A stretch of 64,000 nucleotides of DNA from an uncultured bacterium. Lineage in GTDB: Bacteria; Cyanobacteriota; Vampirovibrionia; Gastranaerophilales; Gastranaerophilaceae. A program made the translations under genes and the position numbers. Of the stretch, positions 19,791-23,252 are shown piece after piece (position 1 is the first letter of the stretch; each line of letters opens with the position of its first letter). The stretch lies in the NCBI GenBank assembly GCA_947073645.1, contig CAMTMK010000009.1, forward strand, positions 812-64,811, in the 5' to 3' direction. The notes under the pieces are model-generated. The model was not told the DNA's origin, made no database searches, and saw nothing but the letters and a program-made list of their open reading frames with translations.

Positions 19791-20366
19791 ATGCACATAA
19801 GAAATTTTACGGATAAAGACATTATACAAGCATCAAAATTAGCTAAATTAACATGGGGTGATTTTTACACCCATGAAAGCGAAAAATTACAAAGTTTAAT
19901 CTACAGTTTTATGGTTGAATACTATGATTTGAACCGTGAATACTCGTTTAGTATTTTAGATGATAAATTAAAAGGCTTTTTGCTTGCTTTCCGTAAAACA
20001 GATTGTTATAAACCAAAAGATTTTGATAAACGAGTAAAGGCTTTAAAAAATAAAGCTGAACAAAAAATTGCATTTGATTTGTTCAATTATTTAGAGGTTT
20101 GCGGGAATGAACTTAAAAATATAATTAATTATGATGATGTTACATTAGGCTTATTTGTAAGTATTCAAAAAGGCTGCGGAAAACAGCTCCTCGCAAAACT
20201 TGTTGAAACTTGCAAAGTAAAAAATATGAAAAATATTTATCTTTGGACAGATACAACATGCGATTATGAATATTACAAGAAAAATGATTTTATCATACTA
20301 AAAGAGATAGAATCGTTTGTAAACGGTAAGCAAATTAAAACTTTAATTTATAAAAGGAGTGTATAA
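19791..20366 (+). CDS. GNAT-family acetyltransferase-like protein
   Basis: LFVSIQKGCGKQLL, IYLWTD, YYKKNDF. Confidence 0.7.
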   Translation: MHIRNFTDKDIIQASKLAKLTWGDFYTHESEKLQSLIYSFMVEYYDLNREYSFSILDDKLKGFLLAFRKTDCYKPKDFDKRVKALKNKAEQKIAFDLFNYLEVCGNELKNIINYDDVTLGLFVSIQKGCGKQLLAKLVETCKVKNMKNIYLWTDTTCDYEYYKKNDFIILKEIESFVNGKQIKTLIYKRSV

Positions 20367-20391: not shown

Positions 20392-20560
20392 AAAAATTTA
20401 CACCTGCCGCGATTGTCTTGCTCGGCGGCATTAAACGGGTCTACCGTTTTCTACTACATAAACTTCGTTTATTTCGTAGAAAAGCTTTCGCCCTCTGCCG
20501 CCTCGCGCTCGAACGCAGACAAAGCTTTGCTTTGTTGCGTTCTCATATCAAATCCAAAAC

Positions 20561-20600
20561 ATATGTAAAAAGACCCAAATATTTGGGTCTTTTTACATAT
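20561..20600. repeat. Perfect 40-bp palindrome
   Basis: ATATGTAAAAAGACCCAAAT|ATTTGGGTCTTTTTACATAT, no loop. Confidence 0.9.
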
Positions 20601-20660
20601 ACCCTCTGGCACTCAAGATTCGAACTTGGGCAATCATGAAAAATGCCGTATGATTTAATG

Positions 20661-20690
20661 TTGACAGAATTTTAAAATATATGTTATAAT
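20661..20690 (+). promoter_or_regulatory. Consensus sigma70 promoter with extended -10
   Basis: TTGACA-18 nt-TATAAT with TG just upstream of the -10. Confidence 0.75.
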
Positions 20691-20713: not shown

Positions 20714-20763
20714 AAAAAAGAGTAAGATAAGGATTATGAAAATCCTGTCTTACTCTTTTTTTT
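20714..20763 (+). terminator. Terminator-like hairpin between the promoter and the MuF-SAA gene
   Basis: AAAAAAGAGTAAGATAAGGATT...AATCCTGTCTTACTCTTTTTTTT. Confidence 0.65.
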
Positions 20764-20788
20764 ACACTAATCATAGAAAGGAAAATAT

Positions 20789-21730
20789 ATGAACTTAAAA
20801 CAAAAAATTACAAATTTAGTAAAAATCAAAAAGTTTGACGACAAATTGTTATCAGAATTAGCAAACATGAAATCAAAACTTATTATTAATACTTCAAATA
20901 TTGATTATGAAATTTATAATAAACTTTCTGATATTGAACATTCATTATACAGATATAACAATTTTGTAAAAAATGACATGCAAAATTATGCAGATAAAGA
21001 AGCTAAAAACCTTATGAATTTATAGGATGAAAATTCAACAGTTTTGGAAGGTGGAATAAGTAATATAAAATACGTCTGGCATACAGAACCGAATGCCTGT
21101 GAAAAATGTCAAGAATTAGATGGAACTGAATATAATATCAAAGAAGATATTCCTGAGAAACCACATCCAAACTGTAAATGCTATATTGAAGAAGTTAAGG
21201 ACGATGATGAAACATGTGATTGTTTAGATAAAGTTCAAAACAGATTTGTTTCAATGTTTGAAAAAGTGAGTACATTACAAGCAGATTTACATGAAATGAT
21301 TAATGAGTTAATTGAAGAAATTAAATCAGATATAGGGCAATCTTATAATAATCTTTGCAAAAATATAATTGATGAAGCCTCAAATTGGGATAATGCTATT
21401 GGTGATTTTGCAAGAAATTATAATGATATGCTTGAAGCTGATTGGAAATATTCAGATAAATATTTTCATGCGAAAGCTAATTGCCAAGCTACACAACGTG
21501 GAGTATTGGGTGAAATTGTTGCAGAAGCAACTAGTGTATTGAGAGAAATTGAAGAAGGTATAAGAAAAGTTATTTTTGAAGGTAATAACTTGACAGAACA
21601 AATTAAAGATGCTAAACAAGATATGAAAGCAAATGAATATGGAAGACAACAAGGAAAGACATATTCTAACGAAGCTTGTGAAATTCTAATAGATGTATTT
21701 CGACCTAATGGACTTCCGGATAAATATTGA
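20789..21730 (+). pseudogene. MuF/head-morphogenesis-like Cys motif fused to a serum-amyloid-A-like C-terminal domain; one in-frame TAG at codon 79
   Basis: ORFs 20789-21025 and 21044-21730 share a frame, separated only by TAG 21023-21025; W...C..C..LDG...HPNCKC; SDKYFHA, ANEYGR, FRPNGLPDKY. Confidence 0.8.
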
Positions 21731-21738
21731 GGATACAT

Positions 21739-21981
21739 ATGAAAATGGTGTGTATATTTCTAATTTTTTTAAGTATTATTGTCTTTTTTACAAAAAGTAT
21801 AGAAGAACCGAAATGGAGTCAAATAGATACTTGTCTTGATCGTGGATATTGCTGGGATTATATTCGTAATCGTTGTGAAGAAACGGATCAAGGGTATTGT
21901 GTAAAAAGTAAATATGATTGTCTGGACAAAAGTGGAAAATGGGATAATGAAAAACAATACTGCAAATTTAATTTTAATTAA
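21739..21981 (+). CDS. Small exported Cys-rich protein, candidate immunity protein
   Basis: GAGGA RBS overlapping the upstream stop; hydrophobic N-terminus; CLDRGYCWD and CLDKSGKWD. Confidence 0.65.
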   Translation: MKMVCIFLIFLSIIVFFTKSIEEPKWSQIDTCLDRGYCWDYIRNRCEETDQGYCVKSKYDCLDKSGKWDNEKQYCKFNFN

Positions 21982-22093
21982 TTTACTTAAAGTTCTGTTT
22001 ATTTTATTGAAATTATTGTTCTGTCTTTTTATAACTTTATTTGTTAGTTATTTTGCTATTCTAATCATTATTAGTAAGTTTGATTTATAAATA

Positions 22094-22300
22094 TTGTTAT
22101 ATGAAATAATTTCTATGTTCACAATAGTTGGTATTTGGATAGTATCTTTTGCAAAAGTAAAAAAAAGAACAGCAATTATTTATGCTTTAATATTTGTTTT
22201 GTGGTTTAGTTGTTTGAATACACTACCGTCAGTAAAAAAACAAATAGATATAGATAATTGTGTAGATATAGGTGATTGTTCAGGAGTTTACGAAAAATAA
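22094..22300 (+). CDS. Small two-TM protein with IDNCVDIGDC motif, candidate orphan immunity
   Basis: Two hydrophobic segments; motif resembles IDTCLDRGYC of the upstream gene; no clear RBS. Confidence 0.5.
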   Translation: MLYEIISMFTIVGIWIVSFAKVKKRTAIIYALIFVLWFSCLNTLPSVKKQIDIDNCVDIGDCSGVYEK

Positions 22301-22331
22301 GAGAGGATAACAAATGTCATCCTCTCTTATT

Positions 22332-22332
<1 letters not shown>
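22295..22332. terminator. Bidirectional terminator at the tRNA 3' end
   Basis: AAATAAGAGAGGAT / ATCCTCTCTTATTT 14-bp arms. Confidence 0.8.
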
Positions 22333-22405
<73 letters not shown>

Positions 22406-22500
22406 AAAACGTATTTAATTTACATCCACTATATTAACATGAAAATTTTTTCTTGCAAGAGGAAATTTTTACTTTATAATTATTACTGAAAGGAGAGGTT

Positions 22501-23252
22501 ATGAAAGATTTTAATCAACTTGTCGGGGGGGGGGCACTCATAGCGTAACTCCTGCATTCACGTTAGCCGAGGTTTTAATTACTATCGGCATTATTGGTGT
22601 CGTTGCTGCAATGACTATGCCTACTCTTATGGCAAGCACTCAGAAAAAAGAATTGCAAACAGCTTTAAAAAAGGCTTATTCGACTTTGAGTCAAGCACTT
22701 ATGATGTATGAAAATGATAATGGCTGGCCTGTTACGTCTAAGTTAGAAGTTGGACAGTTAAAGCCGATTTTGATGAAATATATTAATACTGCAAAAGATT
22801 GTGGAATAGGTACTGAGGGAGATAAAGCCTGTATGCCTAATAAAGCATACGTAAGCAATCCTGATGATTATAAAGATATATATAAAACATTTAATGGTAA
22901 AAATAATATTAATTACGCATTGTTTGATGATGGTCAGTTTGTAATGAATGACAATATGTTCGTAATGATTGAAAATGGTTATCAGTCGAGGTATCCGGAT
23001 GCGACTGTTGCAAGGGTATGGATTTCTGTTGATGTTAATGGTTTTAATAAAAGACCAAATCGCTTTGGACAGGATTTATTTATGTTTCAAATAAATGATA
23101 AGGGTGCACTTTTGCCTATGGGGGCTGAGGGAACTGAATATTACAGTGAAAATGATGCTTATTGCTCTTCTGTATCATCAAGCAGTTTAAATGGTGCAGG
23201 GTGTACTGCAAATGCATTGAATGATGAAGATTTTTGGAAGAGTATGCCGTAA
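22501..23252 (+). CDS. Type IV pilin-like protein; frameshifted at a G10 tract in the leader (putative phase-OFF)
   Basis: AGGAGAGG RBS, ATG 22501 MKDFNQLVGGG then TAA; the frame from 22539 reads HSVTPAFTLAEVLITIGIIGVVAAMTMP and joins ORF 22611-23252; G8 or G11 restores the frame. Confidence 0.88.
22525..22534. repeat. G10 homopolymer
   Basis: Counted directly: gtcGGGGGGGGGGcac. Confidence 0.95.

Follow-up and report, generated by a model that had tools for sequence, protein, structure and literature searches.

A probable decaying toxin-immunity cassette joining a MuF-like module to a serum amyloid A-type tip in a mouse-gut Gastranaerophilales chromosome

The DNA analyzed here is a 64,000-nucleotide stretch (hereafter, the window) of contig CAMTMK010000009.1, which belongs to an uncultured bacterium of the Gastranaerophilales. 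Positions 20789-21730 of its forward strand constitute a single frame of 314 codons, which we call the toxin gene for reasons given below and which contains one interruption, a TAG codon at 21023-21025. As encoded, the frame consists of an open reading frame (ORF) of 78 amino acids (aa; 20789-21025) and one of 228 aa that begins with TTG at 21044, the first start codon past the TAG. A preliminary description of this DNA had presented the gene as one 313-aa protein; the single frame is present, but this protein is obtained only by reading through the TAG. The amino acid strings quoted in that description were all recovered at the positions it gave for them. It had also reported two small membrane-protein ORFs downstream. 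Both follow the toxin gene; the first (21727-21981) is an intact gene, but the second (22094-22300) turned out to be the tail of a broken second gene.

The 3' part of the toxin gene (21392-21730, forward strand), corresponding to residues 202-313 plus the TGA stop, encodes a predicted toxin domain of the prok-SAA type of the Lipocone superfamily, recognized from Pfam, PDB and structure-model matches. The proposal that this region resembles serum amyloid A (SAA) was confirmed by the Pfam profile SAA (PF00277), which scored 81.7-82.4 bits (cut-off, 30.8; E = 3.5e-23 to 5.6e-23) and aligned from position 9 to position 102 of its 102 positions, that is, over the whole domain. The same profile matched 24 of the 24 aligned family members. 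When the read-through protein was compared with PDB chains using phmmer, the chains below E = 1e-6 were SAA only (range, 5e-13 to 2e-7), among them 7zh7 (5e-13), mouse SAA3 (4q5g; 5e-11) and human SAA1 (4ip8; 6.5e-10). The alignment with 4ip8 reproduced an earlier hand count of identities to human SAA1: 25/48 in the ungapped core and 8/10 at the C-terminus (FRPNGLPDKY versus FRPAGLPEKY).

For structure comparison, we used a model of the intact ortholog P0001 (311 aa, 81% identical) based on a 71-sequence alignment, instead of the interrupted window protein. The mean predicted local distance difference test (pLDDT) score of this model is 81.4, with values of 83-97 in the SAA part, and the model is superposable on solved SAA structures, which show a four-helix cone and a short fifth helix. 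Its C-terminal domain matched human SAA1 (4ip8_A) with a target-normalised TM-score of 0.90, a root-mean-square deviation of 2.1 Å and 36% identity, and mouse SAA3 (6pxz_B) with a TM-score of 0.87, which bears out the assignment to the SAA fold. Burroughs, Nicastro and Aravind (eLife 2025; PMC12419801) placed SAA in the SAA-Wnt clade of the Lipocone superfamily, whose ancestral pocket they propose to contain a His (H2), a Glu (H3) and an Asp (H4), with a sNxxGR motif in the SAA-Wnt clade. The window domain retains H227 (codon 21467-21469), E253, D278 and A281-N282-E-Y-G285-R286. H227, E253, D278 and G285 are invariant in our family alignment A1, and H227, E253 and A281-N282-x-x-G285-R286 fit the published His/Glu/sNxxGR pattern; the Arg of the sNxxGR-type motif has been lost in one subclade (P0007, P0028, P0032 and P0039). 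The C-terminal domain encoded in the window is a genuine relative of vertebrate SAA.

The remainder of the toxin gene encodes a MuF-like module and a linker. Codons 1-78 (20789-21022, forward strand) specify the N-terminal helical region of the module, which aligns end to end with the N-termini of intact relatives of 305-335 aa and forms four helices in the P0001 model (block-mean pLDDT 80-94). The core of the module (21026-21223, forward strand) contains W97, C104xxC107, H126-P-N-C129-K-C131 and C143-D-C145. Residues W97, C104, C107, P122, H126, N128, C129, C131, C143 and C145 are invariant in the family, and the Cys and His residues among them look like a metal-binding knuckle. Between the module and the SAA domain lies a variable helical linker (21224-21391, forward strand), which is poorly conserved and length-variable in alignment A1 and which, in the P0001 model, contributes to two long helices (143-177 and 182-215 in the numbering of P0001), the block-mean pLDDT values over the linker stretch being ~60-77.

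The preliminary description had assigned the Cys motif to the MuF type. The motif is present and invariant, but the Phage_Mu_F profile (PF04233) scored only 23.3-23.6 bits (E = 1.2e-4) on the window protein, below its cut-off of 29.6, with residues 65-132 placed on profile positions 37-110 and only the last 44-74 of the 112 positions aligned. The core also matches VG15 (PF25310). Phage_Mu_F was detected at E <= 0.01 in 19 of the 24 aligned family members, and its cut-off is passed by two relatives with the same module, P0169 (38.0 bits) and P0162 (34.1 bits, positions 2-111 of 112). In the PHROGs database, the window protein matched minor head and head morphogenesis families with E-values from 1e-7 to 2e-3, including the "minor head protein" family phrog_115 (1e-7), and five of the seven matches were to "head and packaging" families. 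All were confined to residues ~59-144, with homology to ~55-70 residues of phage proteins of 340-670 aa. A fold search with the whole P0001 model against predicted viral structures gave nothing significant (best E = 0.08), and MuF and minor capsid names were frequent among the weak, non-significant matches. On the profile evidence, the MuF-like part appears to be real, yet short (~135 aa) and divergent.

The first gene downstream of the toxin gene (21727-21981, forward strand) is an intact gene of the Imm-SAA type, identified by a family profile, its conserved cysteines and its linkage to the toxin gene. Imm-SAA proteins have been described as having a membrane anchor of one or three helices, four absolutely conserved cysteines, and one alpha-helix and four beta-strands (PMC12419801). 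Translation from TTG 21727 gives 84 aa; the likelier start is ATG 21739, located behind GAGGA at 21729-21733, which gives 80 aa. The product has one N-terminal membrane helix followed by a cysteine-rich domain. C36, C42, C65, C79 and W72 are invariant among 15 immunity homologs from toxin loci, and in 50 database homologs each of these four cysteines is either invariant or conserved to at least 90%; the window product is a six-cysteine variant with two extra cysteines. The family profile gave a single match in the 64-kb window, to this gene (E = 4.9e-25). No Pfam or PHROG family matched the gene, and its homologs are labelled hypothetical in their sources.

The second Imm-SAA-type gene (21914-22300, forward strand) is broken. 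ORFs 21914-22090 and 22094-22300 share a frame and jointly correspond to a single 147-aa three-helix Imm-SAA protein of the related locus L006, which reads Q where the window has a TAA stop codon (22088-22090). The window product ends past the second conserved cysteine, shortly before a tRNA gene, and the gene was missed by the Imm profile in the 64-kb window.

We then examined the relatives of the toxin. A protein search returned 141 relatives, mostly of 305-335 aa, with full query coverage and PF00277 present, and a scan of one genome per species found 213 stretches encoding relatives. According to the record titles, nearly all of these stretches come from Gastranaerophilales, Melainabacteria or "Cyanobacteria bacterium" metagenome-assembled genomes (MAGs) of gut and rumen origin; the bin labels of a few are evidently wrong, and one relative is encoded in MAG GWF2_37_15, apparently non-gut by its title. 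Among family members, the SAA domain invariably forms the end of a protein of 220-390 aa whose N-terminus is hydrophilic, and is never a stand-alone secreted protein of ~100 aa.

An exhaustive HMMER search with a profile of the module (residues 1-146) retrieved 1041 cluster representatives at E <= 0.001. Among 289 proteins examined, 171 had an SAA domain, and 67 had non-SAA tails of at least 100 aa, which fell into 13 groups. Pfam identified Peptidase_M23 in P0169 (E = 3e-33), Peptidase_M15_3 in P0162 and Phage_lysozyme in P0242 (E = 1e-26), while the tip of P0254 is Mbeg1-like by Pfam and Phospholipase-like in precomputed matches; the largest group of non-SAA tails (45 representatives) contains no known domain. 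Judged by these family assignments, every recognisable tip on the MuF-like module is predicted to attack the cell envelope. The supposition that homologs of the N-terminal region would differ at their C-termini was therefore borne out.

The neighbourhoods of 80 related loci were surveyed over 6 kb on each side. Immunity homologs form the second-largest gene cluster, with 63 genes in 53 of the 80 loci plus the window. According to a stricter profile, 51 of the 80 SAA-type loci have a four-cysteine gene at most 600 nt downstream of the toxin gene and on the same strand, with up to seven matches per locus; both one-helix and three-helix forms occur. The Imm-SAA profile matched anywhere in 52 of the 80 SAA loci versus none of seven loci with other tips, the contigs of which are short (1.5-7.3 kb) and show their neighbours only in part. 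This association of the small gene with the tip had been predicted, and together with the tip variability and the linkage in 51 of 80 loci it supports the original suggestion of an SAA-fold payload of a MuF-like protein followed by immunity-like genes.

In this family, as in polymorphic toxins, a conserved N-terminal part is joined to alternative C-terminal domains, and the Imm-SAA profile tracks the SAA tips, as cognate immunity genes do. The alternative tips and the tip-linked small gene argue for a polymorphic toxin-immunity system and not for host mimicry, and prok-SAA has indeed been classified as a toxin tip of polymorphic toxins (PMC12419801). On the observed homologies, architecture, linkage, variability of the C-terminal tips and inactivating mutations, we conclude, with a probability of roughly 0.75, that the locus is a decaying toxin-immunity cassette of the polymorphic-toxin type in the chromosome of a mouse-gut Gastranaerophilales (Melainabacteria) strain. 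Toxicity, substrate, compartment of action, neutralisation and export route are inferred.

The ancestral protein of ~313 aa would have consisted of the MuF-like module (four helices and the Cys/His knuckle), the helical linker and the prok-SAA tip, with the module as the conserved trafficking part and prok-SAA as the toxic tip, and it would have been delivered to neighbouring competitor cells. Head-group cleavage of lipid-linked substrates has been predicted for Lipocone domains (PMC12419801), and the SAA domain is a predicted enzyme because of its homology to this superfamily, which includes TelC, an enzyme that cleaves lipid II. The SAA tip may thus cut the head group of a lipid-linked envelope precursor or of a membrane lipid outside the cytoplasm, presumably at the outer face of the competitor's inner membrane. 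The membrane-anchored Imm-SAA protein, with a putatively disulfide-stabilised outer domain, would shield the producer by binding the toxin tip there. The lineage of the window would then have dropped the weapon and kept the shield, with the nonsense codon fixed in the toxin gene, immunity gene 2 broken and immunity gene 1 intact.

The last step is based on the lesions themselves. The stops of the 39 window ORFs of at least 200 aa are 28 TAA, nine TGA and two TAG. TAG ends ordinary long ORFs in the window, so the genetic code is standard and the TAG at 21023-21025 (forward strand) is a real stop; as both TAG and TAA terminate such ORFs, reassignment of stop codons was ruled out as the cause of the interruption. 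The corresponding column of the family alignment contains S, A, L or Y, and the nearest relatives, P0001 (81%) and P0003 (73%), are uninterrupted. In the P0001 model, the TAG position falls in or beside the sole low-confidence linker (residues 81-90).

The window strain recurs in mouse-gut metagenomes, as judged from run labels, and we compared the assembled contigs of these runs (X1, X2 and so on), in which minor variants would not show. Positions 21023-21025 are the same as in the window in contigs of seven further runs (X1, X2, X6, X8, X10, X13 and X16), of which X1, X2, X6 and X8 stem from four different studies. As far as contigs show, an assembly error was therefore ruled out as well. 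The nonsense mutation sits in a poorly conserved spot, and it is real and old in the lineage; the toxin gene is inactivated in every sampled mouse-gut strain of the window lineage. In immunity gene 2, position 22088 is C (CAA) in X6, X9, X10, X13 and X16 and T in X1, X2 and X8, while X6, X13 and X16 lack one base in an A-run starting at ~22155 (given as 22159 for X6 and as 22167 for X13/X16). Since different strains carry different lesions, immunity gene 2 was broken at least twice independently, and with both the toxin gene and the second small gene broken, the locus is decaying.

Contigs from two metatranscriptomes (X13 and X16) contain a related allele in which the toxin gene lacks 20763-20996 and 21184-21548, deletions of 232 nt and 363 nt that remove the H227 codon. 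Over 21548-22349, which includes the SAA tail and the immunity region, this allele shows four differences and one gap in 801 nt (0.5% divergence). The same allele has 23 differences in the 189 nt of the MuF knuckle (20996-21184), and 12 of the 17 that were listed individually are at third codon positions. An allele that has diverged in the knuckle yet is near-identical in the tail is a mosaic, which suggests recombination between diverged toxin genes. Taken as they stand, the sequences give the picture of a toxin gene that is probably under relaxed selection beside a retained immunity gene.

Several observations weigh against the decaying-cassette interpretation. The MuF-like module of the window copy is, as described above, short and below the Pfam threshold. 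No portal, terminase or capsid gene was found in the window flanks or among the recurring neighbour clusters of the 80 loci, which leaves the MuF-like module as the sole lead to a delivery route; nor was a signal peptide seen by direct reading of the toxin, or a marker of type VI (T6SS), type VII (T7SS) or other secretion systems in its Pfam results. About 27 of the 80 loci lack a four-cysteine gene and have other small ORFs with several transmembrane segments, some of them on the opposite strand. The model of the immunity protein is of moderate confidence at best, with a pLDDT of 73 and a predicted TM-score of 0.39, and it shows short helices and two short strands versus the published helix and four strands. 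The toxicity, activity and neutralisation of prok-SAA are predictions in the literature as well, TelC being the sole characterised Lipocone toxin (PMC12419801). Finally, 17 species have a natural two-gene split near the position of the TAG; that the TAG abolishes toxin function is therefore likely, and not proven.

These natural splits are one argument for a still functional locus, in which the TAG would yield two polypeptides: a 78-aa helical one and a 228-aa knuckle-SAA one from TTG 21044. In the 17 loci, the knuckle-SAA gene starts (M-x-x-x-VLKGGISN, ~residue 84) precisely at the end of a separate upstream gene of 128-247 aa, and the stop codon of the one usually overlaps the start codon of the other. 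The N-terminus of the upstream product shows a distant relationship to residues 1-85 (hhalign probability 86%, E = 5e-6); the product has no domain recognised by Pfam, and it carries a DGxYGxKT motif reminiscent of peptidoglycan-binding domains. A functional split would also fit the location of the TAG beside the low-confidence linker, its stable retention in strains from several studies, the conservation of every conserved residue in the 228-aa ORF, and the presence of the related allele in metatranscriptome contigs. However, the nearest relatives have a sense codon at the TAG position, and of the 17 natural splits, 16 have a second gene whose ATG lies at the upstream stop or overlaps it, with an upstream partner that is longer than 78 aa. 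In the window, by contrast, the only start is a TTG 18 nt further on, without a visible Shine-Dalgarno sequence. Moreover, immunity gene 2 is also broken, and the large toxin-gene deletions of the sister allele fit relaxed selection. We therefore consider a functional two-polypeptide locus unlikely.

Still less probable is that the protein is a phage part left by a prophage, i.e. a MuF-type head protein with an envelope-degrading domain that aids phage entry or exit. The relationship of the module to phage MuF and minor head families would agree with this, as would the lysozyme, M23 and M15 C-termini, which are typical of virion-associated lysins, and P0169, which also matches PHROG endolysin, tape-measure and minor head families. 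It has been reported that 96% of bacterial muf genes are located in prophages or their remnants (Jamet et al. 2017; PMC5576092); some toxin loci have small tyrosine recombinases, a Mu-type transposase or resolvases nearby, and a tRNA gene abuts the toxin island. On the other hand, the packaging genes absent from the window flanks and from the recurring clusters of the 80 loci were also absent from three Pfam-labelled loci (10 kb on each side), the neighbours at other loci having been scanned in part, so that rare exceptions are possible. The homology extends over only ~55-70 residues of phage proteins of 340-670 aa, the viral fold search was non-significant, and the dedicated membrane-anchored small gene that follows, sometimes in arrays, is a signature of immunity genes.

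That the domain is a host-directed mimic, as the preliminary description had suggested, is hardly tenable; such an SAA would be released in the gut and bind retinol or lipids or engage mouse SAA receptors. The strain does inhabit the mouse gut, the domain has 36-39% identity to mouse SAA3 and human SAA1 across the fold, and a crystal structure of mouse SAA3 with retinol exists (title of 6py0), but the protein lacks a signal peptide, the domain invariably lies behind, or is split from, a MuF-like module of the trafficking type, the same module bears peptidoglycan hydrolases, the gene is linked to a bacterial membrane immunity-type gene and is inactivated in all sampled mouse-gut strains of the lineage, relatives occur in the apparently non-gut MAG GWF2_37_15, in rumen and in other animal guts, and the published phylogenetic reading derives animal SAA from bacterial toxin domains, not the reverse (PMC12419801).

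Going beyond the decaying cassette, it is conceivable, though we regard it as rather doubtful, that the MuF-like module has been freed from phages and is now a chromosomal, phage-independent trafficking domain that carries envelope-attacking tips (SAA, M23, M15, lysozyme, lipase-like) in fused and split forms. If true, this would point to a route of export or delivery hitherto undescribed for this uncultured phylum, and lineages such as the window strain would have lost the toxin and kept the immunity.

Some related proteins and loci show further features. In P0283 (263 aa), the usual N-terminal helices are replaced by the end of an RHS-type repeat (...YDPETGLF...DPxGL), behind which the knuckle module lies; this indicates that the MuF-like module can also sit inside an RHS-type toxin. 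A gene for a secreted LprI-type lysozyme inhibitor (PF07007, E = 3e-10) is located directly upstream of the toxin gene in several species, for example at about 5422-5946 in L009-L012 and directly upstream in L081-L083; it may provide immunity against lysozyme-tipped relatives or encode an accessory protein. In L082, 6-8 kb downstream of the toxin gene (15512-18298), we found a 167-aa Peptidase_M23 ORF, then a 110-aa ORF with a weak Phage_Mu_F match and, behind it, a 248-aa VRR_NUC nuclease; an HNH protein is close by. By their domain matches, these ORFs look like further or spare toxin cassettes, including nucleic-acid-targeting tips.

The toxin subclade of 370-380 aa has no four-cysteine gene. 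Instead, a conserved gene on the opposite strand, right after the toxin gene, encodes a very hydrophobic protein of 82-91 aa with probably three membrane helices (L006, 4774-5422); it is also present, on the minus strand just downstream of the toxin gene, in L052, L068, L069, L077, L079 and L080. Other toxin loci have a second family of ~110 aa with multiple membrane helices. Both may represent a different type of immunity protein. Also found in the Pfam-labelled loci were ParE, a transposase of the Mu type, resolvases and restriction-modification genes, along with additional MuF-like or M23 fragments.

The right boundary of the 1.7-kb island that contains the window cassette is a tRNA-Arg(TCT) gene (22331-22406, minus strand; detected by ARAGORN, and with 68.6 bits by the Rfam tRNA model). 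To the left of the island, there is a tRNA-like 3' fragment (GCCCAAGTTCGAATCTTGAGTGCCA, ~20598-20626, minus strand), followed by a strong hairpin terminator (20558-20603). Neither ARAGORN nor Rfam called a tRNA at 20598-20626, and integration of the island in the tRNA-Arg gene with duplication of its end is unsupported, since the universal T-loop is all that the fragment has in common with the tRNA-Arg 3' end. The element at 20558-20626 may be a tRNA remnant that marks an old insertion site. Between two hairpins lies a G+C-richer stretch of ~170 nt (20396-20566) in a region that otherwise has 29% G+C; it contains ORFs of only 69-73 aa, gave only weak, chance-level matches to Rfam at E <= 1, and could be a small RNA.

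A candidate sigma-70 promoter (20661-20690, forward strand) precedes the toxin gene. It consists of TTGACA, an 18-nt spacer and TATAAT, with TG before the -10 hexamer, agrees with the consensus at 12/12 positions and lies ~100 nt before ATG 20789; the identification is by pattern matching only, and promoter-like sites across the region are not more frequent than in shuffled controls. Between this promoter and the toxin start lies a long A+T-rich inverted repeat (20717-20767; AGAGTAAGATAAGGATT ... AATCCTGTCTTACTCT) followed by a T-run, so that the 5' leader of the toxin locus would contain a terminator-like hairpin. The X13/X16 allele lacks four bases at 20735.

The window genes flanking the island encode GGDEF, PpiC rotamase, holin-family membrane, cupin, PH/GRAM-domain and pilin-like proteins, alanyl-tRNA synthetase and dUTPase, and two flanking products, including that of the 191-aa ORF 19791-20366, have no Pfam match. 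The genes past both ends of the island are housekeeping genes. The flanks vary among loci, and the closest species is the only one with the same upstream genes. The holin-family gene (18341-18709; Phage_holin_4_2, E = 1e-28) lies amid housekeeping genes with no phage genes around. The pilin-like gene (22611-23252) is preceded by a strong Shine-Dalgarno sequence (AAGGAGAGG) with ATG 22501 and then by a run of 10 G (22525-22534). A prepilin-type motif (AFTLAEVLITIGIIGV, 22554-22601) shares its frame with the 22611 ORF and not with ATG 22501, and one extra G or two fewer would join the two. The contigs of X1, X2 and X6 have 10 G as in the window, contigs being blind to length heterogeneity. Region 22501-22610 may mark a phase-variable pilin.

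For annotation, the window toxin gene is best treated as a pseudogene and 21727-21981 as a probable orphan immunity gene. The locus independently confirms that close bacterial relatives of vertebrate SAA occupy toxin positions, and it lends support to the published view of SAA as originally an enzyme that attacked lipids of the bacterial envelope. Members of the family are plentiful in the Gastranaerophilales, a common and uncultured gut lineage, and provide intact orthologs with matched immunity genes for a first experiment on prok-SAA; such work could clarify how vertebrate SAA acts on bacteria.

The preliminary description had supposed the architecture to be new, which does not hold. The source data of the Lipocone study (PMC12419801) list "T6SS, MuF, TM+[TM+TM+]Imm-SAA" as contexts of Prok-SAA, and record Prok-SAA C-terminal to MuF in 19 cases and Imm-SAA downstream of MuF in 14. 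A peptide-string search of its supplements located HIT54729.1, with a closely similar domain sequence, in the prok-SAA set. The combination of MuF, prok-SAA and Imm-SAA has thus already been catalogued computationally, and the window locus is a decayed new member: it has the same domain, the same MuF fusion and the same four-cysteine membrane-anchored type of immunity protein, and differs in being a pseudogene with a retained, six-cysteine immunity gene. The words Melainabacteria and Gastranaerophilales are absent from the supplementary files of that study that were examined, whereas nearly all relatives found here come from this lineage. Our own searches revealed that the family is concentrated in Gastranaerophilales, that packaging genes are absent, that fused and split forms exist, that the short module bears other tips, and that the locus decays at strain level with an immunity gene retained; we saw no mention of these points in the passages of PMC12419801 consulted.

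With vertebrate SAA1/2/3 (4ip8, 4q5g and 6pxz), the window domain shares the fold at 36-39% identity over ~105-120 aligned columns, and KYFHA, an RE pair, ANxxGR and the C-terminal FRPxGLPxKY are common to both. Vertebrate SAA is a stand-alone secreted apolipoprotein with a signal peptide, whereas the bacterial domain ends a multi-domain protein without one, and has an insertion of ~10-20 residues and two cysteines, C232 and one near the C-terminus.

In the MuF polymorphic toxins (Jamet et al., BMC Biol 2017, PMC5576092; Zhang et al., Biol Direct 2012, PMC3482391), an N-terminal MuF domain carries, as the MuF-like module does here, a C-terminal toxin domain that varies, and a small ORF of <150 aa lies downstream; in the window, 21727-21981 is such an ORF, adjoining the toxin gene on its downstream side. 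The toxins described by Jamet et al. are exclusively found in prophages, within the DNA-packaging module, whereas the present family occupies chromosomal islands in which no packaging genes were seen. Their toxin examples include nucleases and an ADP-ribosyltransferase, whereas several of the tips found here target, by prediction, the cell envelope, and the MuF-like part is only ~135 aa here and sub-threshold in the window copy.

Finally, TelC of Streptococcus intermedius is a lipid II phosphatase exported by a T7SS (Whitney et al. 2017, as summarised in PMC12419801). It cleaves lipid II outside the cytoplasm and is neutralised by TipC, a membrane or periplasmic immunity protein (PMC12419801). 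The TelC-TipC pair differs from the window system in that TelC belongs to the prok-TelC family and not to the SAA-Wnt clade, and in its LXG/T7SS export signal, the fold of its immunity protein and its Gram-positive host. Its toxin is nevertheless a member of the same superfamily, and the pair serves as the model for the mechanism proposed here for the window system.

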